Origin: Vicinamibacterales bacterium | GTDB lineage: Bacteria > Acidobacteriota > Vicinamibacteria > Vicinamibacterales > UBA8438 | DNA: 64,000 bases | Reading direction: 5' to 3' | Assembly: GCA_965200895.1 (NCBI GenBank) | Contig: CBDAVM010000001.1 | Location: forward strand, 2,484,335-2,548,334 | Shown: in pieces, positions 12,141 through 31,568 of the stretch | Numbering within the stretch: position 1 is the first letter of the stretch | How the letters are laid out: every line of letters starts with the position of its first letter | Position numbers and translations under genes: made by a program | The notes under the pieces: generated by a model | The model's input: the letters and a program-made list of their open reading frames with translations, nothing else | Databases searched by the model: none | What the model was told of the DNA's origin: nothing

Positions 12141-13756
12141 CCATGCGGAGCAGGTTGCGCCACGGATTCCCGGCGTGGGCCGCCATCGTCGCGCTGGCCG
12201 CCGCAACGCTCGCCGGTTGCGGGGCGCCCGACGACGCGGCGTCGACCGGGCGCGGCGGCGGCGCGGGTGAAGCGCTCCCGCCGGTCGTCCTGCCGCGGCT
12301 GGCCGGGCTCGCGCCGGCGGTCCAGGATCAGATCCGCGCGCGACACGCGGCCGTGCTCGCGCTCGACGGCGGCGCCGGGGCGCCTCCGACCGCATTCGCG
12401 GAGGCCCACGGCGAGCTCGGTCTGGTGCTGCAGGCGGCGGGATTCTACGAGGCCGCCGAGCACGCCTTCCTGCACGCGCAGGCAGGCGCGCCCGACGCCT
12501 TGCGCTGGCCGTACCTGCTGGCGCACCTGTACCAGTTGACGGGACAGCGGGGACGTGCGCTCGAGCGTTTCCGGCACGTCGTCGAGCGGGATCCGGCGAA
12601 CCTGCCGGCCCTGGTCTGGCTCGGCGAGATGTATCTCGATCAGGGACAGCCGGCCGAGGCCGAGCGGGTCTACGGTCGGGCGCTGGCGCTGCAGCCCGCC
12701 TCGTCCGCCGTCCTGGCCGGCATCGGCAGGGCCGCGCTGGCGCGCGGGGATGCAACCCGCGCCGTCACCCTTCTGGAGCGCGCCCTGGCCGTCGATCCGG
12801 CGGCGACGAGCCTCCACTACAGCCTCGGCATGGCGTACCGGGACCTCGGCCAACTGGAGCGGGCCGAGCAGTACCTGCGCCGGCGGGGCGGCGGCGCGCC
12901 CGGGCTTCCCGATCCGCTGCTGCAGGAATCGACCGGTCTGCTCGACAGCGCGCTGGCCCATGAGCGGCGCGGATCGCGGGCCCTGGGCGCCGGACGGCAC
13001 GCCGAGGCGGCGGCGGCCTTTCGCGCCGGCTTGGCGCTGACGCCGGACGATCCGACGCTGCGGCACCGCCTCGGCGTGGCGCTCGACATGGCGGGCGACA
13101 CCCGCGGCGCGCTGGCCCAGTTCGAGGCGGCGCTGGCGGTGGCGCCGGACCTGGCCGACGCCCACTTCAGTCTCGGGGAGCTGCTGGCGCGGGACGGCCG
13201 CTATACCGAGGCGATAGCCCGCTACGAATCCGCGGTCGAGAGTCGCCCCAACTACGTGGACGCGCGGATGGGCCTGGCCGACACGCTGAGTCTCGCCGGG
13301 CGGCTTGCCGACGCCGTTACGGAGTTCGAACGGGTGGTCGCGGCGGATCCGGCCTCCGACCAGGCGTGGATGGGACGCGGGGTGGCGCTGGTGCAGCTCG
13401 GCCGGCATCGGGAGGCGCGCGACTGGCTCGAGCGGGCGCAGCTCGTGCATCCCGGCCACCTGCTGCTGACGAACCTGCTGGTGCGTGTCCTCGCCGCGTC
13501 CCCGGACGCCCGGGCGCGTGACGGCGAACGGGCGCTGGCGTTGGCGAACGAGCGGCTCCGCGGCGACACGAGCATCGAGACCTACGAGAGCCTGGCGATG
13601 GCCTGCGCCGAGACGGGGCGCTACGACGAGGCGGTGACCTGGCAGCAGCGGGCCGTCGGGGCCGCGCGGCAGGCGGGGCAGGGGGGGCGCGCACGAAGCC
13701 TGGCCGCGAACCTGGCCCGTTACGAGCGGGGCCGACCGAGCCGTTCGCCGCTGTGA
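12137..13756 (+). CDS. TPR-repeat lipoprotein (TPR-a), translationally coupled to CRTAC1-a
   Basis: The ATG at 12137 overlaps the upstream TGA (ATGA). Signal MTMRSRLRHGFPAWAAIVALAAATLAGC. TPR repeats. C-terminal tail NLARYERGRPSRSPL. Confidence 0.8.
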   Translation: MTMRSRLRHGFPAWAAIVALAAATLAGCGAPDDAASTGRGGGAGEALPPVVLPRLAGLAPAVQDQIRARHAAVLALDGGAGAPPTAFAEAHGELGLVLQAAGFYEAAEHAFLHAQAGAPDALRWPYLLAHLYQLTGQRGRALERFRHVVERDPANLPALVWLGEMYLDQGQPAEAERVYGRALALQPASSAVLAGIGRAALARGDATRAVTLLERALAVDPAATSLHYSLGMAYRDLGQLERAEQYLRRRGGGAPGLPDPLLQESTGLLDSALAHERRGSRALGAGRHAEAAAAFRAGLALTPDDPTLRHRLGVALDMAGDTRGALAQFEAALAVAPDLADAHFSLGELLARDGRYTEAIARYESAVESRPNYVDARMGLADTLSLAGRLADAVTEFERVVAADPASDQAWMGRGVALVQLGRHREARDWLERAQLVHPGHLLLTNLLVRVLAASPDARARDGERALALANERLRGDTSIETYESLAMACAETGRYDEAVTWQQRAVGAARQAGQGGRARSLAANLARYERGRPSRSPL

Positions 13757-15589: not shown

Positions 15590-17268
15590 TGCCGGAACCT
15601 CGGATGAGGGCGGCCGGGTCGGCCCCGACGCGGTGGTTGGTCGTGATGCTGGGGTTCGCGGTGCTGCTCGCCGGATGCGCCGCACCGGACGAGCCTGCAT
15701 CGGAGGCGCAGGCGTCGGCGGAGACGGCGGCCGGAACGCCGGCCTCGGCGGGCTCGATGGTGTCGTGCGGCGATGCGCTGCCGGCTCTCGACCGGGTCGG
15801 CGAGTCGGTGCAGGCCCGGATCCGCGAACAGCACGCGGCCCTGCCGCCGCGCGACGAGCGGGCGGGCCTCCCGGCGGAGCTGGCGGCCGATGTCGTCGGC
15901 GTGATGGGGATGACGTTCATGGCGGCCTGGTTCACGGACGAGGCCGAGCCGTGCCTGCGCGAGGCGGCGGGACTGGCGCCGGACGACGTGCGCTGGCCCT
16001 ACTATCTCGCGCAGTTGTACCGCGACCGCGGCGCGCTGGACGAGTCGGCCGCGTTCTTCGAGCAGGTCCTCCGCATCCAGCCGGAGGACCCGACGACGCT
16101 GTTCTGGCTCGGCGACATCCGCCTGGAGCAGGGCCGGTCCGACGAGGCCGAGCCGCTGTTCGCCCGGGCGCTGGCGCTGTTCCCGTCGTCGCTCTCGGCG
16201 CGCTACGGCCTGGCGCGGACGGCGCTGCTCGAAGAGGACTACCGCCGGGCCGCGGACCTGCTGGAGGAGATCCTCGCGCGCGCCCCGGACATCGGCGCGG
16301 TGCACTACCCGCTGGGGATGGCCTATCGCGGGCTGGGAGACGACGCGAAGGCCGAGGAGCACCTGCGGCGGCGCGAGAACGCCGAGATCCGCCCTGCGGA
16401 CCCGTTGATGGCGGCGCTGGACTCGCTTCTGACGACCGCCGGCACCTTCGAGAATAGCGGTCTGGAGGCGCTCGACCGACAGGAGTGGCCGGCCGCGATC
16501 GAGCAGTTCCGGCAGGGGCTCGAACTGGATCCCGACGATCCGGGGCTGCGGCACCGGCTGGGCACGGCGCTCTTCATGGTCGGCGATCTCGACGGCGCGA
16601 TGGCCGAGTTCCAGCGGGTCGTGCGGACCACCCCCGACTACTTTCCCTCGCACTACAGCATCGGCGTGCTGCTGCAGGAAACGCGGCGGCATGCCGAAGC
16701 CGTCGAACGGTTCCGGACCGCACTGCGCCACCGGCCGGGGGACGACGCCGTGCACCTGCGGTTGGCGATCAGCCTGCGGCACGCGGGCGATCCGCAGTCG
16801 TCCCTGTCGTACTACGAGCGGGTGCTGCGTTCCGCTCCCGACGCGCTCGAGGCCCGGTTCGGATACGCGATGGCCCTCGTGCAGCTCGGCCGCTACCGGG
16901 AGGCGCGCGACCGGTTGGTCACCGCGATGGAGGCGTTTCCGAACGAGACTTCGTTCCCGCACGCGCTGGCCCGGCTGCTCGCGGCCGCACCGGATGGCGC
17001 GATCCGCAACGGCCGGCGGGCGATGACGCTGGTCGAGCAGGTCATGGACGCGGAGCCGGAGCCGACGCTCGATCTGGGCGAGACGATGGCGATGACCCTC
17101 GCCGAGGTGGGCCGCTTCGGCGAGGCCGCCGAGGTGCAGCGTGCACTGATCGGCGCCGCCGAGCTGGCCGGGTTGCCGGACGTGGTTCGGCGCCTGACGG
17201 TGAATCTCCGGCGTTACGAGCGGGGGGAACCGTGCCGCACGCCCTGGCCCGCCGAGGCCATGCCATGA
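15589..17268 (+). CDS. TPR-repeat lipoprotein (TPR-b), coupled to CRTAC1-b
   Basis: The ATG at 15589 shares one nt with the upstream TGA (TGATG). Signal MPEPRMRAAGSAPTRWLVVMLGFAVLLAGC. Paralog of 2..1711. Confidence 0.8.
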   Translation: MPEPRMRAAGSAPTRWLVVMLGFAVLLAGCAAPDEPASEAQASAETAAGTPASAGSMVSCGDALPALDRVGESVQARIREQHAALPPRDERAGLPAELAADVVGVMGMTFMAAWFTDEAEPCLREAAGLAPDDVRWPYYLAQLYRDRGALDESAAFFEQVLRIQPEDPTTLFWLGDIRLEQGRSDEAEPLFARALALFPSSLSARYGLARTALLEEDYRRAADLLEEILARAPDIGAVHYPLGMAYRGLGDDAKAEEHLRRRENAEIRPADPLMAALDSLLTTAGTFENSGLEALDRQEWPAAIEQFRQGLELDPDDPGLRHRLGTALFMVGDLDGAMAEFQRVVRTTPDYFPSHYSIGVLLQETRRHAEAVERFRTALRHRPGDDAVHLRLAISLRHAGDPQSSLSYYERVLRSAPDALEARFGYAMALVQLGRYREARDRLVTAMEAFPNETSFPHALARLLAAAPDGAIRNGRRAMTLVEQVMDAEPEPTLDLGETMAMTLAEVGRFGEAAEVQRALIGAAELAGLPDVVRRLTVNLRRYERGEPCRTPWPAEAMP

Positions 17269-18692: not shown

Positions 18693-20456
18693 GTGAAGCA
18701 GACGCTGTTGGCGTGGTCGGCGGCCGCGGCGCTGGCCGCCTGTGGTCCGTCCGGTTCCGGGTCGTCCGAGCCGGCCGGGACGGGCGCGCCGCCGGTCGCC
18801 CCGCTCGATCCAGCCCGCGAACTGTTCGCCGACCGGGCGGTCGAGGCCGGCCTCGACTTCGTCCACTTCAACGGCATGACGGGCGGGTTCTACCAGCCGG
18901 AGATGATGGGGCCGGGCGCAGGCCTCTTCGACTACGACAACGACGGGGACCTCGACGTCTATCTGGTGCAGGGCGAGCTGCTCGGCGACGGGACGCCGCT
19001 GCTGCCGCCGCCCGAGGGACAGCCGCCGGGCGACAGGCTGTACCGGAACGATCTGGCGGTGGGGCCGGACGGGACGCGGTCGCTCCGCTTCACCGACGTC
19101 ACCGACGAGAGCGGCCTGCCGGCGGGCGGCTACGGCATGGGGGTGGCGGCGGGCGACTACGACAACGACGGCTGGGTCGATCTGTACCTGACGCGCTTCG
19201 GGCGGAATCGGATGCTGCGCAACCGCGGTGACGGGACGTTCGCCGACGTATCCGCCGAGACCGGCGCCGACGAGCCGTCGTGGGGCGTGCCGGCGACCTT
19301 TCTCGACTACGACCGCGACGGCTGGCTGGACCTGTTCGTCGGCAACTACCTGAACTATACGCTGGACACGCATACGCAGTGCTACAACCGGTCGGGGCCG
19401 CCCGACTACTGTCCGCCGGAGGTGAGCCCGCCGGCCCCGAGCCGGCTGTACCGCAACCGGGGCGACGGCACGTTCGCCGACGTCACGGCCGCGGCGGGGC
19501 TGGGCCGGGAGTTCGGGCCTGCGCTCGGAGCCGCGTCGGCGGATTTCGACAACGACGGCTGGATCGACCTGTTCGTCGCCAACGACCAGCAGGAGAACCA
19601 GCTCTGGATGAACCAGGGCGGGGGCGGGTTCCTCAACCTGGCCCTGCTGCAGGGCGTGGCGCTGGGCGCGGCGGGGGACGCGAAGGCGGACATGGGGGTC
19701 GACGCGGGCGACTTCGACAACGACGGCGACGAGGACCTGTTCATCACGGAGCTGACCGGACAGGGGAGCACGCTCTACGTCAACGACGGCGCCGGGCTGT
19801 TCGAGGACCTGAGCGCCGTCTACGGCATCCGCGCTGCGAGTCTGCCCTATACCGGGTTCGGAGCGGGCTGGCTCGACATCGACAACGACGGCTGGCTCGA
19901 CATCGTGGCCGTCAACGGGGCGGTGACGCAGCGTCTCGAATCGCTGGGCCCGGGGAACCCCTTCCCGCTGGACCAGCGCAACCAGGTGTTCCGCAACCTC
20001 GCCGGAACGCGTTTCGAGGACGTGACCGACCGGGCCGGCGCCCCGTTCGCGCGCTCCGAGGTGAGCCGGGGGGCGGCGTTCGGCGACATCGACAACGACG
20101 GCGACACCGATGTCCTGGTGGCGAACGCCGCCGGCCGGGTGGAACTGCTGATCAACCAGGTGGGTCAGGGCCGCGACTGGATCGGACTGCGCCTTGCCGG
20201 GGGCGATGTCCCGCGTACGGTGGTCGGCGCGCGCGTGACGGTCATCGGCTCGGACGGGGTCACGCGCCGGCGGCGTGCGCGGGCCGACGGCAGCTACGCG
20301 TCGGCGCATGACCCGCGGGTGCTGATCGGGCTCGGCGACGAGTCGGCGGATGCGCTGGCCGTGCAGGTCACGTGGCCGGACGGACGGGCCGAGGCGTGGC
20401 CCGACGTGCCGGTCGGGCGCTACAGCACGCTGGCGGCAGGCGGGGGGCGGCAGTGA
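18693..20456 (+). CDS. CRTAC1-family lipoprotein (FG-GAP + ASPIC/UnbV), copy c (closest to copy a)
   Basis: GTG start. Lipoprotein signal MKQTLLAWSAAAALAAC. Long near-identical stretches with copy a (NGMTGxFYQPEMMGPGxGLxDYDNDGDLD; YCPPEVSPPxPxRLYRNRGDGTF). Confidence 0.85.
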   Translation: MKQTLLAWSAAAALAACGPSGSGSSEPAGTGAPPVAPLDPARELFADRAVEAGLDFVHFNGMTGGFYQPEMMGPGAGLFDYDNDGDLDVYLVQGELLGDGTPLLPPPEGQPPGDRLYRNDLAVGPDGTRSLRFTDVTDESGLPAGGYGMGVAAGDYDNDGWVDLYLTRFGRNRMLRNRGDGTFADVSAETGADEPSWGVPATFLDYDRDGWLDLFVGNYLNYTLDTHTQCYNRSGPPDYCPPEVSPPAPSRLYRNRGDGTFADVTAAAGLGREFGPALGAASADFDNDGWIDLFVANDQQENQLWMNQGGGGFLNLALLQGVALGAAGDAKADMGVDAGDFDNDGDEDLFITELTGQGSTLYVNDGAGLFEDLSAVYGIRAASLPYTGFGAGWLDIDNDGWLDIVAVNGAVTQRLESLGPGNPFPLDQRNQVFRNLAGTRFEDVTDRAGAPFARSEVSRGAAFGDIDNDGDTDVLVANAAGRVELLINQVGQGRDWIGLRLAGGDVPRTVVGARVTVIGSDGVTRRRRARADGSYASAHDPRVLIGLGDESADALAVQVTWPDGRAEAWPDVPVGRYSTLAAGGGRQ

Positions 20457-20533
20457 TCAGGATGGCGGCCGGCCGGATGCGGCTTCCCCGGCCCGCGGTC
20501 GTACGCCGGAGAGCACGTCGTTGGGTGAGCGGG

Positions 20534-21916
20534 ATGGCGGCCGGTCGGACACGGCGGGGCGCGGCGCTGGTGTGGCTCCTGGGGATGTTGAGTCTTGCGT
20601 CGTGCGGCGACGCCGGGTCGTCGGATGCCGGCGGACCCGCTGCGCCCGGCCCCCTTGAATGGTCGGGGCCGCGGCCGGTCGATCAGCCTGACCTCTCCCG
20701 GCTGGCGCCGCCGGTGCAGGAGCAGGTGCGCGAGCGGTACGCCGCCATCGCGCGCGCGGGCGACGGTCCGGATGCGTCGCCGACCGTGCTGGGGGATGCC
20801 TACGGCGAGCTCGGCCTGATTCTGATGGCCGCCGGCTACCGGGACCGGGCCGAGGTCGCTCTCCTGAATGCGTACGGGCTGGCGCCCCGCGTGATGCGCT
20901 GGCCCTACTATCTCGCGCACCTCCATCGCCAGGAGGGGGACCGGGCGCGGGCGGCCGGGTTCCTTGTCCGGGCGCTGGCGCTGGAGCCGTCGCACCTGGC
21001 CGCCCTGGTCTGGCTGGGTCGCATGGAGCTCGACCGGGGGCGCACCGTCGAGGCGCAGGCGGCGTTCGAGCGGGCGCTGGGCGTCGATCCGGCCTCGGCG
21101 GCGGCCCTGGCCGGCGCCGGGCGGGCCGCGCTCGCGGCGCGCGATGCGCAGCGGGCCGTGGGGTACCTGGAGCGCGCCCTGGCGCTGGAACCGTCGGCCG
21201 GGAGCCTGCACTACAACCTGGCCATGGCGCACCGGGCGCTCGGCAATCTCGACACCGCGCAGTCCCACCTCCGGCGTCGCGGCGCCGGCGTGCCGGCGCC
21301 CCCCGACCCGCTGATGCGGACCTACAACGGTCTGCTCCGCAGCGCTCTCGCCTACGAGATCCGCGGCATGCGGTCCATGGACGCGCGCCGGTTCGACGAG
21401 GCAGCCACGATCTTCAGGGCCGGGTTGACCGGGACCCCCGACGATCCGTCGCTGCGGCACCGGCTGGGCACCGCGCTGATGATGGCCGGCGACGCCGAGG
21501 GCGCCATCCGGGAGTTCGAGGCCACGTTGCGCATCGCGCCGGACTTCGAGAAGGCGCAGTTCGGGATCGGCGTGATTTTGGGCATGAGCGGGCGGCACGT
21601 CGAGGCGGCCGAGCGTTATGCGGCGGCGGTCGAGCTGCGGCCGAACTACCTGGAGGCGCGGCTCGGGCTGGGGGAGGCGCTGCGGCTCACCGGCCGGCTG
21701 CAGGAGGCTGCGGCGCAATTTGCCGAGGCGGTCCGCATCGACCCGGCGTTCGCCGAGGCCTGGGTGGTGCGTGCGATCATCCTGCTGCAACTGGGGCTGT
21801 CCGGCGAGGCGGATGCCTGGCTGCGCGAGGCGCTGCTGGTGCACCCGGGCCATCCCGATCTGACGGCGCTGCTGGCGGAGGTCGAGGGCCGCGGATCCCG
21901 ACGCGGGGCGCGGTAG
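20534..21916 (+). CDS. TPR-repeat lipoprotein (TPR-c), C-terminally shorter than its paralogs
   Basis: In-frame starts at 20453 (GTG overlapping the upstream TGA), 20462 and 20534. 20534 gives the canonical signal MAAGRTRRGAALVWLLGMLSLASC. Colinear with TPR-a up to LLVHPGHPDL, then it ends. Confidence 0.75.
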   Translation: MAAGRTRRGAALVWLLGMLSLASCGDAGSSDAGGPAAPGPLEWSGPRPVDQPDLSRLAPPVQEQVRERYAAIARAGDGPDASPTVLGDAYGELGLILMAAGYRDRAEVALLNAYGLAPRVMRWPYYLAHLHRQEGDRARAAGFLVRALALEPSHLAALVWLGRMELDRGRTVEAQAAFERALGVDPASAAALAGAGRAALAARDAQRAVGYLERALALEPSAGSLHYNLAMAHRALGNLDTAQSHLRRRGAGVPAPPDPLMRTYNGLLRSALAYEIRGMRSMDARRFDEAATIFRAGLTGTPDDPSLRHRLGTALMMAGDAEGAIREFEATLRIAPDFEKAQFGIGVILGMSGRHVEAAERYAAAVELRPNYLEARLGLGEALRLTGRLQEAAAQFAEAVRIDPAFAEAWVVRAIILLQLGLSGEADAWLREALLVHPGHPDLTALLAEVEGRGSRRGAR

Positions 21917-21965: not shown

Positions 21966-24194
21966 TCAGGGCGGGGCGCGGTACGGCTCGTAGCGGCGGT
22001 ACAGGTTCAGCCGCTGTTCGATGCGCCGCACGAGGTCGCCGAGTCCCGGCGTTGCGCGCGCGCGGGCCGCGGCGCGGCGTGCCGTGGCCACCGCATCCGG
22101 GAAGCGTCCGACGGCGGCGTAGGCGGCGGCGAGCGTGTCGAGCGCGTCCGGGTGCGCATCGCCGCCGATACGCACCGCCTCCTGGGCGAGGCGCAGCGCC
22201 GCGGCGCCGTCTCGCAGCGCGGCGTCCGCCGACGTGGCCCGGATCCAGGCCAGTCCCAGGCGCGGGGCGGCCAGGTTCGGGCCGTGAGAGAGGGCCCGCA
22301 GGTAGAGCGCCGCCGCCTCGGCCGTCCCGCCCGCGCCGACCAGCGCCCGCGCCAGGTTGTTCAGGATCTCGGGATCGTCCGGCGCGGCCTCCAGGGCCAG
22401 CCGGTAGTGCCGGATCGCCGCGGCGGTCTCGCCGCGCGTCAGCAGGACGTTGGCCAGGTTGTAGTGCGCTCCGGAATGGCCGGGATCGGACCGCACCGCC
22501 AGGCGGTAGTGCACGATGGCCTCGTCGAGGGCGCCGGTCGCGGCAAGCAGGCCGCCGACGTTGTTGTGCGCTTCCGGGTAGTCCGGACGCAGCGCGATCG
22601 CGCGCCGGTAGGCGGCGATGGCCGCCGCCGCATCCCCTTCGGCCAGGGCCACGCCGCCCAGGTTGTAGTACGCGTCCGGAAAGTCCGGGGCGAGGGAGAC
22701 GGCCGCTTCGAGATGCTCGCGGGCGAGTGCCACCTGACCGACGTCGAGGTAGCGCACCGCGAGCGCCGCGTGATTCACGTGGTCGGTCGGATCGGCGCGC
22801 AGCAGGGACTGATAGCCGAGTATCTCGTCGCGCGCCTGCTTGACGGCCAGGCTGCGCGCCAGCGTGTCCGGGTCGCCGACCGGCAGTACCTGCAGCATCA
22901 GCTCCGCCATCTCGTCGGTCGCGGCCGGGCCGAAGCCGACCGTGGCCGGCGGGTCGTGGGGGTTGCGCGGGTTGCCGCGGGAGTTGTCGAAGGTGAAGCG
23001 CACCCGGAGCTGCGTCCCCGCCGGCAGGTGGACCGGCTCCTCATAGCGGTACTCGTCCTGCCAGTTGAAGTCCCAGTCGTCGATGCGCAACAGCGGCTCC
23101 TCGCGCCCGTTCGGCAGCGTGGCCGTCGCCTGGATCCGTTTCCCCAGGTAGTGCATGTGGGGCGCGATACCCAGCACGTCGACCGCGATCGGCAACCGAT
23201 AGCCGTCCTGGATGACGTGGGCCGGATCGCCGGCGGGGATGCGAATGGCCTGCGACGTGAGCAGCACCGAGACCGGCGTCAGCGTCGCCGGACGGTCCGC
23301 GAAATGGAGTCCGACCGCCGGTTGCACGACCACCGCTTCGCGACCGGGCAGCAGGTGGAGCTGCAGCACGAGATCGGTGCCGGGATCGAGCGGCCAGGCG
23401 ATCTCGTCCGGGAGGGTCACCGGCGTCCGGCCGGGCGCCCAGCCCAGGAAGTGACCGGCGGGAAAGCGGGCGTGGTCGAGCATCAGACCGTCGTAACCCG
23501 GATCGGGATCTTCCGCATCGAGTTCCCGCGCTGCACGAGTCTCGTCCAGCAGGATGCGGGCATGGTGGATCACGCGCCCGCCGCCGGCGCCCGGCCGCAG
23601 CTCGACGGCGCGCACCCAGCGCCGGGAATCCAGATCCACGGGCAGGACGAAGTTGCGATAGACATCGGTGTGGCCCGACGACAGCCGGAACGGCTCCGGC
23701 GCGGGCACGACGAGGTCCGGCGGTCCGAGCTGCCAGCCGTTCCCGGTCCCGGGCGGCTCCGGGAGGTCGGCCCGCTCGCCTTCGGCCGCGCCGGTCGCCG
23801 CCCACCGGGACAGCAGGGCGATCTGTTCTTCCGACAGCCGTCGCTCGTTGCGGAAACGGCCATGACCGGGGACCGGTTTCCAGGGCGGCATCCGCCGCTC
23901 GGCGGTGGCCGCGGCGATCTGCACCGCCCGCGCCCCGGCGTCCGCGTAGGTGGTCAGACTGAAGGGACCGATGCCGCCGGGACGGTGGCAGCCGACACAG
24001 TGGGCGTGGAGGATCGGCGCAACATCACGTGCGAACGTCACGGAGCCGCTGTCGGGTTCGCCCTGTGCGAAGCCGATCTCGGGAGCGCCGCCGGCTCCCG
24101 ACATGCCGATGACGACGATTGCCGCCGCCGCGACACGCGGGCGGAGCCATTCGTATCGCGGCCCGGTACGCATGCGCTTCATCGTGCTGGACAT
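21966..24194 (-). CDS. Secreted CxxCH-motif + PHM/DBH-like type-2 copper monooxygenase domain + C-terminal TPR protein (paralog 1)
   Basis: 742 aa. HCVGCH heme-c motif. Cu-ligand-like VIHHARIL, LVLQLHLL, APHMHYLGK and TDEMAELM. DWDFNWQ. About 250 aa of TPR. Tail RLNLYRRYEPYRAPP. Confidence 0.75.
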   Translation of the reverse strand: MSSTMKRMRTGPRYEWLRPRVAAAAIVVIGMSGAGGAPEIGFAQGEPDSGSVTFARDVAPILHAHCVGCHRPGGIGPFSLTTYADAGARAVQIAAATAERRMPPWKPVPGHGRFRNERRLSEEQIALLSRWAATGAAEGERADLPEPPGTGNGWQLGPPDLVVPAPEPFRLSSGHTDVYRNFVLPVDLDSRRWVRAVELRPGAGGGRVIHHARILLDETRAARELDAEDPDPGYDGLMLDHARFPAGHFLGWAPGRTPVTLPDEIAWPLDPGTDLVLQLHLLPGREAVVVQPAVGLHFADRPATLTPVSVLLTSQAIRIPAGDPAHVIQDGYRLPIAVDVLGIAPHMHYLGKRIQATATLPNGREEPLLRIDDWDFNWQDEYRYEEPVHLPAGTQLRVRFTFDNSRGNPRNPHDPPATVGFGPAATDEMAELMLQVLPVGDPDTLARSLAVKQARDEILGYQSLLRADPTDHVNHAALAVRYLDVGQVALAREHLEAAVSLAPDFPDAYYNLGGVALAEGDAAAAIAAYRRAIALRPDYPEAHNNVGGLLAATGALDEAIVHYRLAVRSDPGHSGAHYNLANVLLTRGETAAAIRHYRLALEAAPDDPEILNNLARALVGAGGTAEAAALYLRALSHGPNLAAPRLGLAWIRATSADAALRDGAAALRLAQEAVRIGGDAHPDALDTLAAAYAAVGRFPDAVATARRAAARARATPGLGDLVRRIEQRLNLYRRYEPYRAPP

Positions 24195-24228: not shown

Positions 24229-26403
24229 TTATCGGAGCGGCCGTCGTTGCCGGTACAGCGTCAGCCTGCGCTGCAGTTCGGCCGTCAGATCCGGGCTGCC
24301 GATCGGGCGAGCCAGCGCAATCGCCTGCCGTTGCGCGGTCAGCGCCCCGTCGAAGCGCCCCGCTGCAGCGTACGCCGCGGCGAGCGTGGCCACGACGTTG
24401 AGGTCCTGCCGGCCGGTGAGCACGGCCGCCCGTTCGGCCAGCGCCACGGCTTCGCCCGGCGTGCGAAGCCGTTCGTCACCGGTCGTCGACAGGAGCCAGG
24501 CGAGAGATGTCAGCGACTCGACCCCGTCCGGTTCCAGCGCCAGCGCCCGGCGATAGTGCCGGATGGCGTCACCGTCCCGGCCGACCGCGGCCAGGGCGCT
24601 GGCGAGATTGTTGTGCGCCGCCGCGTTGCCCGCGTCCAGCGCCACGGCGCGTTCGAAGTACGCCGTGGCCTCGGCGCCGCGGCCCATCGCCTTCAGCACG
24701 GCCCCGAGGTTGTTGTGCGCGGCGGCGTGCGCGGGCCGCAACGCGATGGCCCGCCGGAAGTGCCGCACCGCCTCGTCGAGCGCGCCTCGCGCGGCCAGCA
24801 GCGTGGCGAGGTTGTAGTGCGCCGTGACCGACGCCGGATCCAGCTCGATCGACCGCCGGTAGTGGCGCACGGCGACGGCCGTGCGGGCGGCTGTCATGTA
24901 GAGCGACGCCACGTCCCGATGCAGGACCGGGTTGTCGGGATCGGAGGCCAGCATCGACTCGTACCCGACGATGTCCTCGTTGAGGACCTTCGGCATGAAG
25001 GCCTGGACGAGCGTCCGCCGATCCGCCTCGGAGCCGGGCAGAAGCTGCAGCCAGAGATCCCCCATCTCGTCGTTCGAGAACTGCCCGAACCGGACGCGGC
25101 GCGGCGGATGGTCCGGGTTGCGCGGGTTGGCGGCCGAGTTGTCGTAGACGTACTCCATGGCGACCGTCGTCCCGGCCGGCAGAAACGGTCGCGTCTCGTA
25201 GCGGTAGACGTCCTGCCAGTTGAAGTCCCAGTCGGGAATGCGGATCAGGGGCTCGGTCCGGCCGTCCGGGAACGTGGCGAAGCCGTTGATCTCGGTGGCG
25301 CGGAAGTGGGCGTGCGGCTGGATGCCGATCAGCTCGGCCGCGACCGGCAGCGTGAACCGGTCGCGGATGACGTAGCGCGGCTCGCCCGGCGGAATGTCGA
25401 TGCTCTGGCGGCCGAGGCGCAGCATCATCGGGGTGCGCACCGGCGGATCGTCGGTGAAGTGGAGCCCGACGCTGGCCTGGATCGATTCCGGACGGCCGGT
25501 CGACTGCATGTGGAGCTGAATGACGAAGTCGCTGTCCGGCTCCAGGCGCCAGGCCATCCCCGGATCGGCCAGGGGGGGAAGCTGGCCCGGGGTCCACCCC
25601 AGAAAGTGGCCGTCGGGATAGTGCGCCTGCGGGCTGATGGGGCCTTCGTATCCGGGCTCCGGATCCTGCTCGTCGAGCTGTCGGGACGAGCGCGTCCGGT
25701 CGATTCGCAGGTTCGCGTGGTGCGCCACCCGCGGGTTGCCGGGCCGGAACTCGATGCCGGCGACGAAGGCCGTGCGCTCGACCGGGATCGGAAGGACGAA
25801 GTTGCGGAACGTATCGGGGCCGTCGGCAGGTACCGTGTACGGTTCCGGCATCGTCACCACGACATCGGGCGTGCCGAGACGCCAGCCCCGCGGCCAGTCC
25901 GGATGCGGCGGCACACGGCTCAGGTCGCCGGCCGGCGCGCCGGCCTCGGCCCAGCGCCGGAAGAGCGCCACGCTACTGTCCGAGAGCCGCCGGGAGCCGA
26001 CGAACGGTCCGCCGAATCCCGGCTCCGGCTTCCACGGCGGCATGAAGCGGCTGGCCGTCACCTCGGCGATCTGGCGCGCGCGCCGCCGGACGTCGTCGTA
26101 TGTGAGCAGCGGAAAGGGGCCGACCTCCCCGGGGCGGTGGCATGGCGCGCAGTGCTCGATCACCAGCGGCGCGATGTCGTCGGAGAAGGTCGGCGTGGCC
26201 GGTTCGCGCGGCGCCGGGACGGAAGCCTCCGCCGACATCGGCGCCTCCGGTGCGACCGTCGCACCGCGCGCGTTGTCGGGGGCCGCGACGCCGTACGCGA
26301 GGAGCGCTGCAGCGAAGGAAAGACGAGGAGGACGGCGCCATCGATTGTCGCGTCGCATGGTTCCGGAGCGCACAACAGGGCTCATCGGCATTATATTGGC
26401 CAT
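24229..26403 (-). CDS. Secreted CxxCH-motif + PHM/DBH-like copper monooxygenase domain + TPR protein (paralog 2)
   Basis: The start is uncertain (ATG at 26403 or 26358). HCAPCH, VAHHANLR, FVIQLHMQ, QPHAHFRAT, NDEMGDLW, DWDFNWQ, TPR tail ...RLTLYRQRRPLR. The long N-terminal extension of the 875-aa ORF overlaps the upstream gene and is discarded. Confidence 0.75.
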   Translation of the reverse strand: MANIMPMSPVVRSGTMRRDNRWRRPPRLSFAAALLAYGVAAPDNARGATVAPEAPMSAEASVPAPREPATPTFSDDIAPLVIEHCAPCHRPGEVGPFPLLTYDDVRRRARQIAEVTASRFMPPWKPEPGFGGPFVGSRRLSDSSVALFRRWAEAGAPAGDLSRVPPHPDWPRGWRLGTPDVVVTMPEPYTVPADGPDTFRNFVLPIPVERTAFVAGIEFRPGNPRVAHHANLRIDRTRSSRQLDEQDPEPGYEGPISPQAHYPDGHFLGWTPGQLPPLADPGMAWRLEPDSDFVIQLHMQSTGRPESIQASVGLHFTDDPPVRTPMMLRLGRQSIDIPPGEPRYVIRDRFTLPVAAELIGIQPHAHFRATEINGFATFPDGRTEPLIRIPDWDFNWQDVYRYETRPFLPAGTTVAMEYVYDNSAANPRNPDHPPRRVRFGQFSNDEMGDLWLQLLPGSEADRRTLVQAFMPKVLNEDIVGYESMLASDPDNPVLHRDVASLYMTAARTAVAVRHYRRSIELDPASVTAHYNLATLLAARGALDEAVRHFRRAIALRPAHAAAHNNLGAVLKAMGRGAEATAYFERAVALDAGNAAAHNNLASALAAVGRDGDAIRHYRRALALEPDGVESLTSLAWLLSTTGDERLRTPGEAVALAERAAVLTGRQDLNVVATLAAAYAAAGRFDGALTAQRQAIALARPIGSPDLTAELQRRLTLYRQRRPLR

Positions 26404-26485
26404 CGTGCCGCGAGACTTCACCCGCCGTGCCGCGAGACTCCACCCGCGCACCGGCGAGGAGCGGTGCCGGCGGCCTCGGAAAGTG

Positions 26486-28069
26486 TCACTCGGCGACGGG
26501 TTCACCGCGCAGCAGTGGCAGCCGCGCTCGCACCTCGCGCCGTGACAGCCCGATGACGTCGGCTGCGTCCACAAGCGTCTCCACGTCGGCGGGATAGAGT
26601 CGGCGCCGGGCCGGGTCGGCCAGACCGGCGACGTTGCGCGGGGCAATCGTGCGGCGAGCGAGGTCGAGCAGCGGCCCGGAACGGGGCTCCTCCACGAGCC
26701 GGGCCGCCGCCGCGAGGATCCCCTGCAGCACCGGGTCGGTGGCGCCGAGGAATCCGGACCAGGCCCACTGGCCGTCGGTTCCGGGCGGCGCAGGACACAG
26801 GCGTTGGCGTGTCTCGCTGTAGCTGGCCGCGGCGAAGTACGCCTGGACGTAGGCATCGAACGCGTCGAAACGGCAGCGGCAGCGGTAGGCAGGCTCGATG
26901 AGGCGACGCAGGTGGTTCGCCTCCGAGCGGAGCAGCGCGGAGTACCGCTCGAGTCCGGTCGTCAGCCGGACCCGCGTGGCGGTCGGGGAAGCCGTCCGGT
27001 CCTCGAGCAGCAGGCCGAGGCGTTCGACGCCGAGCAGGCTCCAGGCGATGCCGGTGGAGAAGAGCGGGCTCCAGAACTGCAGGACGTGCGGCAGCAGGGC
27101 CCAGCCGTCGCCCGCGGCGCGCGACAACCGGCGCTGCAGCCGCGGAATCACCGCCACCGGGCGCACCGGGACCGCGGTCTCGTATTGCGCGGCGAGCGAG
27201 GGATAACGCCGCGCGAACGCCTGGAACGCGGCGGCGGGCATCCGGTTCGTGATCGCACGAACGGCCGCGGCCCCTTCGACGACGAAGCCGGCGCTGACCA
27301 CGCCGTGATCGAAGGTCAGTTCGTACATCCAGCCTTCGTCGAGGAGATGGTGGACGGCCGCCCTTTCGTCGGGGTAGGGACCGGCGGAGAACGTCCCGCC
27401 GGCGCCGGCCGCGGCCCGCAGCGGTCGTACGCCGCGAAAGTGGCCGTGGACGAGCCCGGTGTGGAGCGAGCCGGGCGGCAGCGCCGCCTGCAGCTTCAGA
27501 TGCCGAGCCAGGAAGCCGTCGGGTCCCGAGGCGTCGATGACGACATCGGCCGGCAGCCGCACCGATCCATCCGGGCGCGCGCCGCGCAGGCGGAAGGCGC
27601 CGCCGCGGCGCTCCAGGGTGTCCAGGGCGGTCCGCTCGAGGCAGCGCACGCCTTCGGCGTCGGCCTGTCGGAACAGGAAGGCGTCGACGTCCTCCCGCAG
27701 CCAGTGCGCATCGGCGACCGCGTCGTCGGGGCTGGCCGCGACGAGCAGACGGTTGCTGTTCGTCGCGTCGTTGCGGTACCGCTGTCCCTGCCGGTGCAGA
27801 TAGAACGTGAATCCGCGCTTGAGCCCGCGGCGGACCTCGGGAAGACGGGCGGTCCAGCGGCCGTAGGCGGCGAGCTGGCGCAGGTCGTCGAGGCCGTAGC
27901 GGGCGGCCAGCCGCTCCAGGGCGATCGCCGCCAGTGGCGTCGACGATTCCCCCAGGGCGAACCGCGGATGTGCGCCCCGCTCGACCAGGGTGACGTCGTG
28001 GCCGATGGCGCGGGCGACCCGGGCCAGGATCGACCCCGCGAATCCGGAACCTACGATGACGACGCGCAT
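26486..28069 (-). CDS. FAD-dependent oxidoreductase with a flavin-dependent halogenase/monooxygenase-like fold
   Basis: The start MRVVIVGSGFAGSILA carries GxGxxG. FALGESSTP. GWMYELTF sits where halogenases carry WxWxIP, so the motif is degenerate. 528 codons. The rest of the 787-aa ORF is an Arg/Pro-rich artefact. Confidence 0.7.
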   Translation of the reverse strand: MRVVIVGSGFAGSILARVARAIGHDVTLVERGAHPRFALGESSTPLAAIALERLAARYGLDDLRQLAAYGRWTARLPEVRRGLKRGFTFYLHRQGQRYRNDATNSNRLLVAASPDDAVADAHWLREDVDAFLFRQADAEGVRCLERTALDTLERRGGAFRLRGARPDGSVRLPADVVIDASGPDGFLARHLKLQAALPPGSLHTGLVHGHFRGVRPLRAAAGAGGTFSAGPYPDERAAVHHLLDEGWMYELTFDHGVVSAGFVVEGAAAVRAITNRMPAAAFQAFARRYPSLAAQYETAVPVRPVAVIPRLQRRLSRAAGDGWALLPHVLQFWSPLFSTGIAWSLLGVERLGLLLEDRTASPTATRVRLTTGLERYSALLRSEANHLRRLIEPAYRCRCRFDAFDAYVQAYFAAASYSETRQRLCPAPPGTDGQWAWSGFLGATDPVLQGILAAAARLVEEPRSGPLLDLARRTIAPRNVAGLADPARRRLYPADVETLVDAADVIGLSRREVRARLPLLRGEPVAE

Positions 28070-29022
28070 CCCGGACAGCGGACGGGAGGACCCGGATCCC
28101 CCGTGAGGTTGAAGCGGCGCAGCCGGGCGATCCGCGAGGCGCGGCAACGCCGGCAGGGCAGGACGCGGTCGATGTCCCACAGGTCCACCGTCGCCACGGC
28201 GGCGGAGATGCCGGCGCAACCCTCCATCGCTTCCTCGATCAGCTCGCGTGTGGGCGGGGTCCAGAGTCCCCGGGCCCGGAGCGCGTCCAGGGCGCCGTTG
28301 CCGTCGCGGGTCGGGATGAGGGTGACGTGTGCGGCCCCCTGATCGACCGCGTGGCGCGCCGCGTCGAGGGCCGCTTCGACTGCCCCGACCGACGGCACGA
28401 ACGGCGGCGGCAGCAGCACGAACGCGCGCATCCCGATGTTGCTCCGGGCGAGTCGCGCGGCGGCCCGATCGAAGTCCTCGATCGTCATGCCCTTGTCGAG
28501 TCGCACCAGAGCCGCCGGGTCCGCGGTCTCCAGACCCATGGCGACATCGAGCCGCCCGGGGATGCGGTCCGCGAATTCGAGGCAGCGCCGCCCGACCAGA
28601 CGCGGGTGGCACTCGACGGTGACGCGGTCGAACGGACGGAGGAGGGCGGCGATGGCTGTGTCGTCTTCCGGCGGGACGGCGCGCGCATCGAAGAAGTTGC
28701 TCGCGTTGTAGAGCTTGATCCCGCACCCGGCCGGCACCGCACCGGTATCCCGGAGCACGGTCTCCAACTGCCGGGGAACCGCACCGCGTGGCGTCGGGCC
28801 GTCGAGCGTCCGGCGCCACAGGTCGCAGAACACGCAGGTGAAGGGGCATTCCGCACCGGCGAGCAGCACCGTCAGCACCGGCGCGATCGAGCCGTCGAGC
28901 CGCCGCTCCTCCTCCTCGAAGTGGGCGATCGGGCGCATCGGATGCGGTTGGATCTTCGGGCCGCGCCGTGCTCGCGCCGCGCCGCCGGCGCGCCCTCCGC
29001 GCCGGGATGCCGGTTCAGGCAC
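28051..29022 (-). CDS. Radical SAM protein (small, no obvious SPASM domain)
   Basis: CxxxCxxC in AGAECPFTCVFCDLW. TIM-barrel-like length. C-terminal CRRC...CPGC pair. The start is ambiguous (GTG at 29022, or ATG at 28938 giving MRPIAHFEEEE). Overlaps the downstream gene by 19 nt. Confidence 0.75.
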   Translation of the reverse strand: MPEPASRRGGRAGGAARARRGPKIQPHPMRPIAHFEEEERRLDGSIAPVLTVLLAGAECPFTCVFCDLWRRTLDGPTPRGAVPRQLETVLRDTGAVPAGCGIKLYNASNFFDARAVPPEDDTAIAALLRPFDRVTVECHPRLVGRRCLEFADRIPGRLDVAMGLETADPAALVRLDKGMTIEDFDRAAARLARSNIGMRAFVLLPPPFVPSVGAVEAALDAARHAVDQGAAHVTLIPTRDGNGALDALRARGLWTPPTRELIEEAMEGCAGISAAVATVDLWDIDRVLPCRRCRASRIARLRRFNLTGDPGPPVRCPGCASSS

Positions 29023-30361
29023 GCGGCGCGTACTGGGCGAGGAAGTAGCCGCGATAGCGATCCGGGTCGCCGAACACCGCGTCGAACGCAGCGTCCGCCA
29101 GCGCCCCGTGCTGGAAGCGGCGTTTCGGAAAGACCGGCAACTCGCGGCCCAGCACCTGCCGCACGCCGCGGCCGAGCACCTCGCCCTTGAGGGCGTACAG
29201 GCGTTCGTGCGAGCCGCGGCTGAGCTCGTCGAACGGGATGCCCTCGGCCGCCGCGATCACGTCCGGTGCGGTGAAGGGGCTGACCAGGTGGAAGCCGTAC
29301 CGCCGGGCCGGCGCATGGCCGCGCACGCAGCCCCGGCTCAGGCCCCCGCTGTAGGTCAGCGAGTGCTTGATGGCGTCCACGCCCCAGCCCTCCTGGTACA
29401 GCATGCGGTTCGAGACGACGCTGCGGATGGTGAGTTCCGTGTTCTCCTCGATCGGGTAGTCCTTCAGGTTCTCGTCGCCGCCGTCGCCGTCGAAGAGCCA
29501 GCGCCAGCGCGGGTAGCGGGCCCGGACCCCGGCCAGCAGGGCCAGACCGACCGTGGCGCACTCGACATCGAGCGGCTTGTAGTCCTCGATGACCGCCACC
29601 GCCCCCCGCGGATCGAGCGCCCCGGCCGGTTCGTCGATCTCCTCCAGCAGGAACTCGAGGCCGGTGTCCCGCACGAAGCGGCGCGCCTGCCTGGCATCGT
29701 CGCCACCCCCGGCGACCGACAGCGTGAACGCCTTCAGCCGCGCCGGCGATTCCTGCCGCTGCAACAGCGCGTCATGCAGGCAGAGCAGCAGCGCGCCGCT
29801 GTCGAGGCCGCCCGAGAAGAGCACGCCGAGCGGCTCGTCCGGCGGCGCGGCGTCGAGCCAGGCATGGACCTCGGCCAGCGCCGCCGTCACGTAACGTCGC
29901 CCGATGAGGTCGAGATCGGTCGGCATGTCGGCCATCGCGGGGGCGAAGAACCGCGTATGGCGCGGCTTCGGATCCGGACAGCCGACCAGCGCGATCTCCG
30001 TCACGTGGTGCGCGGGCGCCATGCGCGTGTAGGTCGGGTGGAACTGGCTCGCGTAGCCCTCCGCCTCCAGGAAGCGATGGATGGCGTCGATGCGGTCGGC
30101 GATCACCAGGAGCGGTCCGGCCGCTTCCTTGGCCAGGAAGTAGCGCAGCGGCCGGCTGAGGCTGCGGACCAGGCGGACGCGTTCGCCCTTGCGGGCGACG
30201 AGCGCGAACGAGCCGCGGATGTCCAGTACCGCAGCCGGGTCGTCGGCCAGGAGGCGCCGGCGCGCCTCGTCGACCGTCATGTTGAGGATGTGCTGGTCCT
30301 CGTCCGGAATGAGGTTCGCAATCCGATGCACCGGATACTCGGCGATTGTGCTGGCGTCCAT
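29015..30361 (-). CDS. Asparagine-synthetase-B-like ATP-dependent amidoligase (PP-loop; no N-terminal catalytic Cys)
   Basis: PP-loop LGVLFSGGLDSGALLL. A vestigial Ntn-like N-domain (RGSFALVA) lacks Cys2. ATG at 30361 (MDASTIAEYP) with SD AGGGGA. The ORF extends to 30388. Confidence 0.75.
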   Translation of the reverse strand: MDASTIAEYPVHRIANLIPDEDQHILNMTVDEARRRLLADDPAAVLDIRGSFALVARKGERVRLVRSLSRPLRYFLAKEAAGPLLVIADRIDAIHRFLEAEGYASQFHPTYTRMAPAHHVTEIALVGCPDPKPRHTRFFAPAMADMPTDLDLIGRRYVTAALAEVHAWLDAAPPDEPLGVLFSGGLDSGALLLCLHDALLQRQESPARLKAFTLSVAGGGDDARQARRFVRDTGLEFLLEEIDEPAGALDPRGAVAVIEDYKPLDVECATVGLALLAGVRARYPRWRWLFDGDGGDENLKDYPIEENTELTIRSVVSNRMLYQEGWGVDAIKHSLTYSGGLSRGCVRGHAPARRYGFHLVSPFTAPDVIAAAEGIPFDELSRGSHERLYALKGEVLGRGVRQVLGRELPVFPKRRFQHGALADAAFDAVFGDPDRYRGYFLAQYAPRA

Positions 30362-30629
30362 GACAGGTTCCCCTGGATCGGATCCCAATCAGCCCGTGGC
30401 GGAAGTCCCCGCGGCATTCGAGCGGCCTCCGCCAGCCCGCGGAGACCGGTATTCACCCAACCGTTCCGAGCGGCGTGTATCGAGGGCAACCGCCAGCCCG
30501 GGGGACTCTTCGATATACTAACCGCTCTGCGGCGAGTTCGCCGCGTTGCCTGCACCGTCGGTTCAGGCACCGAGACCGGGCGAGCCGCCCCGCGTATCCG
30601 GAACTTCGCATAAGGGAAAGGCAAGCCGC

Positions 30630-31568
30630 ATGTCCACTCGACTCCTTCGCCTCGCCAGCCTGCCGGCGCTCGGCCTCCTGCTGCTCACACCGTCCGCGTC
30701 GGTCGCACAGCTCGACCAGACCGCGACGTGGGCCTCGCATCTCTCCAACGAGTACCGCGTCGTGCCGAATGTGACGTATCACGTCGCGAACGGATTCGAG
30801 AACCGCGTCGATCTCTATCTGCCGGGCAACGCGTCCGGACCCTCGCCGGTGCTGATGTACATCCACGGCGGCGGCTGGGTCGGCGGCAGCAAGGAGGGCA
30901 ACGTCCTGCGGTTGCTGCCCTGGCTGGAGAAGGGCTGGGCCGTGGTCAACGTGCAGTACCGGCTGGGCCGCATCTCGCGGGCTCCGGCCGCGGTGGAGGA
31001 CTGCCTCTGCGCCCTGCACTGGGTGAAGAGCAACGCGGAGCAGTACGGTTTCGATACGTCGCGCATCGTCGTCACCGGCAACTCGGCGGGCGGGCACCTG
31101 GCGCTGACCACGGGGATGGTGCCGGATTCGGCTGGCCTCGACCTGGAGTGCCAGCCGCGGGGCGACCTGGGCGTCGCCGCGATCATCAACTGGTACGGCA
31201 TCACCGACGTGGGTGACCTCCTGCAGGGCGTGAACGAGAAGTCGTACGCGGTGCGCTGGATGGGTAGCCTGCCGGACCGGCTTGATGTCGCCCGCCGCGT
31301 GTCGCCGCTCAGCTACGTCCGGGCCGGTCTGCCGCCGGTGCTCAGCATCCATGGGGACGCTGACACGGTCGTCCCGCATCAGCACGCGGTACGGCTGCAC
31401 GAAGAGTTGTCGGCGGCCGGCGTCGACAATCAGTTGCATACGGTGCCGGGCGGAGGCCACGGCCGCTTCACCCGTGACGAGACGATCGTGATCTTCGAGG
31501 CCATCCAGGCCTTCCTCGGGGAGCACGGGCTCGGAGACATGCCCGCGCCGACCCAGGGTCAGCAGTGA
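30630..31568 (+). CDS. Alpha/beta hydrolase (esterase/lipase, HGGG type), secreted
   Basis: Signal MSTRLLRLASLPALGLLLLTPSASVAQ. MYIHGGGWVGG oxyanion motif. GNSAGGH nucleophile elbow. C-terminal HGDADTVVP and GGGHG. Confidence 0.8.
   Translation: MSTRLLRLASLPALGLLLLTPSASVAQLDQTATWASHLSNEYRVVPNVTYHVANGFENRVDLYLPGNASGPSPVLMYIHGGGWVGGSKEGNVLRLLPWLEKGWAVVNVQYRLGRISRAPAAVEDCLCALHWVKSNAEQYGFDTSRIVVTGNSAGGHLALTTGMVPDSAGLDLECQPRGDLGVAAIINWYGITDVGDLLQGVNEKSYAVRWMGSLPDRLDVARRVSPLSYVRAGLPPVLSIHGDADTVVPHQHAVRLHEELSAAGVDNQLHTVPGGGHGRFTRDETIVIFEAIQAFLGEHGLGDMPAPTQGQQ

Follow-up and report, generated by a model that had tools for sequence, protein, structure and literature searches.

In the ArcS-RaSEA system a C-N bond is cleaved and the nitrogen is retained; in the maturation of quinohemoprotein amine dehydrogenase the radical S-adenosylmethionine (SAM) protein QhpD is joined by the flavoprotein QhpG, and LodB and GoxB mature LodA and GoxA. 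Together with the beta-lactam and carbapenam synthetases and the halogenases PltM and CtcP, these are the described systems against which we set three enzymes encoded at 26486-30361 on the minus strand of a 64,000-nt stretch of Vicinamibacterales DNA (the window): an AsnB-like protein, a small radical-SAM protein (rSAM) and a halogenase-like flavoprotein, whose homologues are called FDH-like below, after flavin-dependent halogenase (FDH). We conclude with high confidence that this trio is a real conserved module, not specific to the PHM-TPR genes next to it here; the AsnB-like/rSAM pair is its core and the FDH-like protein a frequent third member. Each enzyme comes from a known superfamily; the combination, and its linkage to genes for TPR proteins, FG-GAP/UnbV_ASPIC proteins (hereafter ASPIC) and RnfD-like proteins, was not found in the libraries and papers that we searched.

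Conservation of the three-gene module

The trio opens a run of five consecutive genes on the minus strand (AsnB-like, rSAM, flavoprotein, PHM-TPR1, PHM-TPR2). Its members and the region in front of it are as follows.

29015-30361, minus strand: AsnB-like gene, 448 aa from ATG; predicted ATP-dependent adenylating or amide-forming enzyme of the AsnB fold
28051-29022, minus strand: rSAM gene, 323 aa from GTG; small radical-SAM protein, nearest curated family RaSEA (TIGR01210)
26486-28069, minus strand: halogenase-like flavoprotein gene, 527 aa; homologue of the PltM/CtcP clade
30362-30545, no strand: divergent intergenic region between the trio and an esterase gene; presumed trio promoter region

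The AsnB-like and rSAM reading frames overlap by 8 nt and the rSAM and flavoprotein frames by 19 nt; gaps of 82 nt and 34 nt separate the flavoprotein from PHM-TPR1 and PHM-TPR1 from PHM-TPR2. The frames, overlaps and gaps given in an earlier reading of this DNA from its letters alone (the original prediction) match the open reading frame (ORF) coordinates exactly, and the motifs quoted there (SGGLDS, CPFTCVFC, a C-terminal CxxC...CxxC, GxGxxG and GWMYELTF) can all be read in the translations. In the annotation of the source the rSAM reading frame begins at ATG 28938 (295 aa), which puts a 76-nt gap in place of the 8-nt overlap. We favour GTG 29022 and the overlap because the 28 upstream residues are conserved in homologues, and judge the GTG more likely to be the better call.

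Relatives of the rSAM protein are numerous: a profile search of 1.84 billion representatives returned 461 clusters (50% identity) at E<=1e-30, and when one genome of each GTDB species was scanned, relatives turned up in at least 464 species. The best 80 loci of rSAM relatives, analysed with the window as a set of 81, belong to Vicinamibacterales, Thermoanaerobaculia, other Acidobacteriota and Gemmatimonadota. By tblastn and ORF clustering, an AsnB-like gene lies directly upstream of the rSAM gene in 76 of the 81 loci and an FDH-like gene directly downstream in 64, some of the loci that lack either neighbour being cut by contig ends. rSAM relatives that are 35-42% identical to the window protein still follow an AsnB-like gene (L083, L084, L085, L087 and L088), and the distant relatives in Planctomycetota retain the AsnB-rSAM pair; an FDH-like gene comes after the distant rSAM in L086 and L087. 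Because distant rSAM relatives keep the AsnB-like gene, and the FDH-like gene less often, we regard the pair as the core of the module. The AsnB-like family is large too: all of the 8000 candidates scored had E<=1e-5. Conservation of the AsnB-like protein is very strong, with 65-90% identity across phyla and 61-87% identity in 75 related loci. Chance adjacency of three unrelated genes was considered and is excluded by a gene order that recurs in 64-76 of 81 loci and in two phyla.

The module moves between genomic contexts, and no other gene family is common across phyla in its 10-kb flanks, except for the link to ASPIC and RnfD-like genes described below. A search for small ORFs within 1.5 kb of the trio in the locus set found none conserved beyond single-lineage synteny; its candidates were chance families of low complexity, besides the end of a rhodanese gene. 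With no adjacent precursor peptide or leader peptidase (B protein) and no conserved neighbour beyond the trio, the locus does not resemble that of a lasso-peptide cyclase or of a peptide made by the ribosome and then modified post-translationally (RiPP), and the original prediction, which had seen no precursor-peptide ORF nearby, was right in this respect. It had also failed to recognise the trio as a described pathway. Pfam, NCBIfam, PADLOC, the PDB and the searched literature indeed assign it no function: Pfam and NCBIfam yield superfamily-level matches only or none, with no trio enzyme reaching a curated family (equivalog) cut-off; the PADLOC anti-phage models match none of the three proteins; and the trio is not described in the searched literature on TIGR01210, RaSEA homologues, combinations of an AS-like enzyme with an rSAM and a halogenase, and CRTAC1/ASPIC. 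An abundant module, present in soil, peat and sponge metagenomes, has had no assigned function. The window itself (G+C about 71%) has its closest relatives among Vicinamibacterales (Acidobacteriota) metagenome-assembled genomes, and near-identical sequence is present in sponge metagenomes.

The three enzymes

The AsnB-like protein contains the PP-loop FSGGLDSG, invariant among homologues, and has no Cys near its N-terminus; nor is a Cys conserved in the first 40 positions of alignments of 24 and 75 homologues. It passes Pfam Asn_synthase (39.8 bits, synthetase domain only) and scores 31.8 bits against a cut-off of 267 for TIGR01536, the glutamine-hydrolysing asparagine synthetase. A phmmer search against PDB chains gave no match. 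Its AlphaFold 2 (AF2) model (pLDDT 79.6) found beta-lactam synthetase as the best PDB fold match by Foldseek (1mbz, E 3.5e-13, TM 0.62), followed by asparagine synthetases, carbapenam synthetase (1q19, 1.6e-10) and TsnB9; loop 303-342 is super-conserved, yet modelled at low confidence. The protein combines the two-domain AsnB fold and SGGxDS PP-loop with an inactive glutaminase domain of the beta-lactam and carbapenam synthetase type. Because of the fold match, the missing N-terminal Cys and the score far below the asparagine synthetase cut-off, it probably does not use ammonia from glutamine, and we predict an ATP-dependent carboxylate-adenylating enzyme that lacks this ability.

The rSAM protein has the CxxxCxxC motif (CPFTCVFC; C59, C63 and C66 invariant among homologues) and partial TIM barrel of the radical SAM superfamily, a basic N-terminus, and a Zn-ribbon-like C-terminal four-Cys element (CRRC...CPGC; C290, C293 and C316 invariant, C319 nearly so). 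RaSEA (TIGR01210) is the sole curated rSAM family that it matches (E 2.9e-19, residues 38-258), with 69.4 bits against an equivalog cut-off of 212.15; Pfam PF04055 gives 23.7 bits, under its cut-off of 29.5. Neither the single sequence nor a profile matched a PDB entry by sequence. The AF2 model (pLDDT 92) is a generic Elp3/PFL-AE-like barrel (TM about 0.5), with fold matches to Elp3, PFL-AE, LipA and viperin, and MiaB/MtaB also among the nearest. In L010, from the same genome as L004, a second, solo rSAM copy (75% identical) adjoins an M28 peptidase gene; it has no AsnB-like or FDH-like neighbour and is uninformative. Two database proteins, P0374 (896 aa; rSAM domain fused to an FG-GAP/ASPIC region) and P0331 (450 aa; rSAM and a flavoprotein/Rossmann start), may be true fusions or gene-calling read-through and are given no weight.

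The flavoprotein is, by its sequence, a member of the halogenase clade, with PDB matches to CtcP (2e-32) and PltM (5.6e-29). Residues 7-12 read GSGFAG (GxGxxG), which is conserved in 58 homologues, and K84, at least 95% conserved, aligns with the catalytic K87 of PltM (chain residue 107; the 20-residue offset between chain and native numbering was fixed via the L111Y entry), the residue whose replacement in PltM K87A abolishes activity (PMC6424973). In PrnA and RebH the catalytic lysine over the flavin is K79. FWSPLFSTG corresponds to the tunnel motif Fx.Px.Sx.G and is conserved as PlFSTG. WxWxIP is replaced by GWMYELTF (clade consensus GWmYxLxF), and a distant homologue (L112) has GWVWVL; according to the review from which both motif definitions are taken, WxWxIP is missing from some active FDHs (PMC8407142). 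NCBIfam adds weak matches to QhpG (7e-10), GoxB and LodB, all in the N-terminal Rossmann region only. If the flavoprotein is a true halogenase, the module would make a widespread, conserved halogenation product outside classical secondary metabolism.

The original prediction had described these enzymes as an AsnB homologue without the glutaminase Cys, similar to beta-lactam synthetase, a small rSAM and a halogenase-fold flavoprotein with GxGxxG and a degenerate WxWxIP. The 1mbz fold match and the survey of Cys residues among homologues uphold the first assignment, the curated family match, invariant Cys residues and fold the second, and the PltM and CtcP matches the third.

Association with exported TPR and ASPIC proteins

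In Planctomycetota, the AsnB-like and rSAM genes follow, in order and on the same strand, an NMT1-type ABC importer, a TPR-ASPIC gene (about 1180 aa), an FG-GAP/ASPIC gene (about 600 aa) and an RnfD/NqrB-like gene (about 285 aa); this arrangement was found in L083 (Aquisphaera insulae), L085, L088 and L100, and where genes were called, in L083, L085 and L088, the reading frames overlap all the way from the ABC ATPase to the RnfD-like protein. Gemmatimonadota show other orders: in L024 and L042 the trio is closely preceded by ASPIC and RnfD-like genes on its own strand, in L067, L082 and L073 such genes sit just downstream of it on the opposite strand, and in L050 an ASPIC gene comes directly after the rSAM gene. 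Among Acidobacteriota, every close Vicinamibacterales relative carries ASPIC genes at most 10 kb from the trio; in the window there are three of them within 21 kb, and about 6 kb separates the nearest from it.

The association was also approached from the RnfD-like side in a set of 80 metagenome loci, 52 of which could be evaluated upstream and 34 of which extended 6.5 kb or more downstream. The RnfD-like gene directly follows an ASPIC gene in 51 of the 52. Within 7 kb, 10 of the 34 loci contain the module with its rSAM gene and 11 an FDH-like gene; in these module loci the FDH, rSAM and AsnB genes are mostly convergent and come after a third ASPIC gene. With roughly one copy of the module per multi-megabase genome, co-location of about 30% is far above chance. 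In four loci, without an AsnB-like or rSAM gene, an FDH-like gene sits inside the TPR-ASPIC/ASPIC/RnfD-like operon, at about 6.3-7.9 kb in L108, L113 and L153 and at 4.4-5.9 kb in L158. One RnfD-like homologue (L115) passes the Pfam cut-off, and the RnfD/NqrB-like family (L083, 7693-8559; alignment A4) has the invariant motif TGPMYQLFxFFMITDPxT.

Because the gene orders differ, simple inherited synteny is disfavoured as the source of this link. We conclude with moderate confidence that the recurrent partners of the module across Planctomycetota, Gemmatimonadota and Acidobacteriota are exported TPR and FG-GAP/ASPIC proteins, often accompanied by an RnfD-like protein, and since the linkage recurs in varied gene orders in three phyla, a role of the module in serving envelope proteins is plausible. 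Proteins of the FG-GAP/UnbV_ASPIC type ('CRTAC1-like') abound in Planctomycetota, Acidobacteriota and Bacteroidota. The literature searched assigns them no function, and the linked enzyme set offers a first way to learn by experiment what their ligands or activities are.

In the window, the corresponding genes occupy the opposite strand.

1792-5175 and 5590-8976, plus strand: TonB-receptor-like outer-membrane genes, preceding the ASPIC-TPR array
10260-12140 and 12140-13756, plus strand: ASPIC-TPR pair (Pfam)
13838-15589 and 15589-17268, plus strand: ASPIC-TPR pair (Pfam)
18693-20456 and 20372-21916, plus strand: FG-GAP/UnbV_ASPIC beta-propeller gene and TPR gene (Pfam), in the same place in relatives (L001)

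With its two TonB-receptor-like genes, a tandem row of three ASPIC-TPR pairs, and a VWA gene, the region 1792-21916 of the plus strand is a large envelope locus, and the array converges on the stop of PHM-TPR2.

The PHM-TPR genes and transcription

The two genes that follow the trio on its own strand were taken by the original prediction for copper monooxygenases, with the trio at the head of their operon.

26404-26485, minus strand: the 82 nt that separate the halogenase-like gene from PHM-TPR1, read from the sequence
24229-26403, minus strand: PHM-TPR1, secreted; CxxCH heme motif, PHM-like His/Met pattern and C-terminal TPRs (Pfam)
21966-24194, minus strand: PHM-TPR2, paralogue of PHM-TPR1; Pfam Cu2_monoox_C 16.7 bits, below cut-off

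Both proteins start with a signal-like segment followed by the CxxCH heme-binding motif. The family has invariant H188 H189, H258 and H324 H326 and a nearly invariant M407, a pattern (HH...H...HxH...M) of PHM-like spacing that we take to correspond to the PHM ligand numbering, with HH and H in the place of the CuH ligands and HxH and M in that of the CuM ligands. Cu2_monoox_C reaches its 16.7 bits, against a cut-off of 23, in just one of the two proteins, and the family profile found neither PHM nor DBH in the PDB. The label PHM thus keeps the His/Met ligand pattern in its favour and finds no backing in Pfam or the PDB, and the assignment as copper monooxygenases is moderately supported by the sequence.

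PHM-TPR genes come after the trio only in L003, L004 (which is the place that L001 shows), L006-L009 and L051, close Vicinamibacterales with rSAM identities of 72-78%: 8 related loci, or 9 with the window, in one clade. None follows the trio in the other approximately 70 loci, which include distant Vicinamibacterales, Thermoanaerobaculia and Gemmatimonadota, and none occurs in the 80 RnfD-side loci. In two of the positive loci the FDH-like gene and PHM-TPR1 are separated by genes on the opposite strand: in L007 (12562-14553) a transposase-like gene (UPF0236) together with a gene of 208 aa, and in L008 (12562-13188) the 208-aa gene alone, which has no Pfam match. The trio does not, in general, appear to head a copper-monooxygenase operon: PHM-TPR genes follow it in one clade and are interrupted in two of its loci. 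The same-strand arrangement holds for close relatives, and the proposed co-occurrence across genomes was not seen in the more distant loci. The PHM-TPR pair is a local version, in one Vicinamibacterales clade, of the exported TPR partner set.

All trio and PHM genes of the window are covered by contigs from four sponge metatranscriptome runs. One contig spans 25598-30491, from PHM-TPR1 to the AsnB-like gene; contigs bridge the 82-nt gap in two of the four runs and break within it in the other two. Depth over AsnB and rSAM is about three times that over FDH and PHM in three of the four runs, and it changes at 30362-30545. A consensus scan of 21.5-31 kb matched no promoter or terminator, with no terminator-like site in the 82-nt gap (26404-26485) and no sigma-70 consensus in 30362-30545, and an Rfam scan of the window found neither a riboswitch nor any other RNA. 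Co-transcription of the trio with the PHM-TPR genes in the window organism is possible.

The divergent esterase gene (BD-FAE/alpha-beta-hydrolase; 30546-31568, plus strand) has about 5-25 times the contig depth of the trio in the four runs. Some contig forms skip 65 nt at 25147-25213 (two runs) or 175 nt at 31012-31188 (four runs), for which strain variants or assembly effects are possible causes.

Proposed function and alternatives

The linkage to envelope genes is best explained, with reasons for belief and for doubt about equally strong, by a self-contained enzyme module whose product or modified residue serves envelope TPR/ASPIC proteins. Of the chemistry we can offer only a low-confidence proposal, built by analogy. 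The AsnB-like enzyme would adenylate a carboxylate and couple it to some amine, though not to ammonia drawn from glutamine; the rSAM, which is RaSEA/Elp3-like and translationally coupled, would perform a radical step on this adduct, and this step, if it resembles that of ArcS-RaSEA, may break a C-N bond with the nitrogen left in place; the FADH2-dependent halogenase, in which the catalytic Lys is kept, would halogenate an electron-rich aromatic ring; and the envelope TPR/ASPIC proteins, in the window organism the PHM-like proteins as well, would use or receive the resulting small molecule or modified residue. In its most specific form, which we consider unlikely to be right in all its parts, the trio would form the cytoplasmic part of an envelope system, so far undescribed, of three phyla: the ligase would couple a carboxylate to an amino-acid amine, a RaSEA-type C-N cleavage would complete this glutamine-independent amidation, and halogenation would yield an aromatic product that acts as cofactor or ligand of exported TPR/FG-GAP-ASPIC proteins with an RnfD-like flavin membrane protein, plus the heme-copper PHM-like proteins in Vicinamibacterales.

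Several observations count against this interpretation. There is no RnfD-like gene in the window, and no ASPIC gene lies within 10 kb in any of the 24 Thermoanaerobaculia loci or in most other acidobacterial loci; because all 24 Thermoanaerobaculia loci lack one at that distance, the ASPIC link is not obligatory in cis. Seen from the trio side, the ASPIC enrichment is a raw figure, uncorrected for genome-wide ASPIC copy number. Every chemical step is an analogy, and substrate, product and target are all hypothetical; in particular, the RaSEA similarity is weak (69 vs 212 bits) and the partner is not ArcS-like, and with its degenerate WxWxIP the flavoprotein could be a monooxygenase or hydroxylase and not a halogenase. 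The RNA evidence consists of assembled contigs only, which may include DNA.

The same partners could be substrates of covalent modification: the trio might modify an exported TPR, ASPIC or PHM-like protein before export, or a precursor encoded elsewhere, and so create a built-in cofactor or cross-link. We hold this to be doubtful, although the partners are exported proteins that include beta-propellers and heme-motif proteins, an FDH-like gene occurs inside the ASPIC operon in the four loci mentioned, and the identity of the AsnB-like protein across phyla would suit a macromolecular substrate. AS-like enzymes are also known to modify peptide carboxylates (PMC13060819). The weak matches of the flavoprotein to QhpG, GoxB and LodB point the same way; they are confined to the Rossmann region, however, and the best structural relatives of the flavoprotein work on free phenolic molecules, while no conserved small ORF adjoins the trio and a gene for a candidate target is absent in cis from most trio loci. 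The explanation implied by the original prediction, in which the trio heads the operon of the two PHM-TPR copper enzymes and makes their cofactor or substrate, draws on the shared strand, the short gaps of 82 and 34 nt, the scan that found no terminator-like site, the contig running from PHM-TPR1 to the AsnB-like gene, and the persistence of the arrangement in close relatives. It is nevertheless improbable, given its limitation to one clade at 72-78% rSAM identity, the absence of PHM-TPR genes from about 70 other loci and all 80 RnfD-side loci, the opposite-strand inserts in L007 and L008, and the threefold higher depth of AsnB and rSAM over FDH and PHM in three of four runs. What stands of it is the broader connection to exported TPR and FG-GAP/ASPIC proteins in three phyla, and what falls is its restriction to periplasmic copper enzymes.

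Two further readings fit parts of the data. Envelope proteins and importers (TonB in the window, ABC in Planctomycetota) could capture an external compound for processing by the cytoplasmic trio, as the NMT1-type ABC importer at the head of the planctomycete operon and the two TonB-receptor-like genes before the ASPIC-TPR array of the window might suggest. AsnB-like ligases and halogenase-clade flavoproteins are typically biosynthetic, however, and most trio loci have no importer nearby, so that such a catabolic or salvage role seems very improbable. The remaining reading makes the AsnB-like/rSAM pair a bacterial analogue of ArcS-RaSEA, with a PP-loop enzyme as in TilS or QueC; the pair would give a base of tRNA or rRNA an amide- or amidine-type modification, and the flavoprotein would add a further step. 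RaSEA as the only curated rSAM family matched, the tRNA-modifying enzymes Elp3 and MiaB/MtaB among the nearest folds, the basic N-terminus with the Zn-ribbon-like four-Cys element, and the very high sequence conservation all agree with it. Against these stand the patchy distribution, the failure of Pfam and NCBIfam to detect a PUA, THUMP or TRAM domain, and the repeated linkage to exported proteins and importers, unexpected for an enzyme of the translation machinery; moreover, we know of no halogenase-family enzyme that acts on RNA. We give this reading the least credence of all, and continue to favour a module serving envelope TPR/ASPIC proteins.

Comparison with known systems

The rSAM protein shares with ArcS-RaSEA (archaeosine synthase) its curated family similarity and a constant pairing with a putative adduct-making enzyme. 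The partner at the trio loci is AsnB-like and ATP-dependent, not ArcTGT/ArcS-like: the AsnB-like gene is the adjacent one in 76 of 81 loci, and no ArcS/TGT-like gene is found among the conserved neighbours. The trio module is also bacterial and has no tRNA context to match the preQ0-tRNA substrate of that system, and the RaSEA model does not cover the C-terminal four-Cys region. If the analogy holds, nitrogen transfer completed by a radical-SAM step would have a second use, in bacteria.

With the beta-lactam and carbapenam synthetases and other non-glutaminase AS-like enzymes, the AsnB-like protein shares its two-domain fold and PP-loop, and like them it has no N-terminal Cys; identity to the beta-lactam and carbapenam synthetases is only 12-19%, and the companion genes of clavam and carbapenem pathways are missing from the trio locus. 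Among solved structures the flavoprotein has its best relatives in PltM, a phloroglucinol halogenase, and CtcP, a tetracycline 7-halogenase, which share its catalytic Lys, GxGxxG and Fx.Px.Sx.G; they differ in that the flavoprotein reads GWMYEL at WxWxIP, its C-terminal third is unrelated, and the trio locus has no pyoluteorin or tetracycline gene context. The maturation of quinohemoprotein amine dehydrogenase offers a parallel, by analogy, in the placing of genes for a cytoplasmic rSAM and a class-A flavoprotein beside those of exported heme-motif or beta-propeller proteins, whereas the trio locus has no small gamma-subunit-like gene or protease and its rSAM is not of the SPASM type.

The 'Halo_AMP CC A' cluster of sponge Acidobacteria (A-domain, FDH, rSAM and P450; bioRxiv 10.64898/2026.08.03.742642) resembles the trio in its sponge origin and in combining an adenylating enzyme with an FDH and an unclassified rSAM. 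It uses an AMP-binding (ANL) enzyme and P450s, none of which is present among the Pfam-scanned genes of the window (about 1.8-38 kb), and this difference in architecture excludes identity of the two. The trio, unlike that sponge cluster, is also common in soil bacteria.

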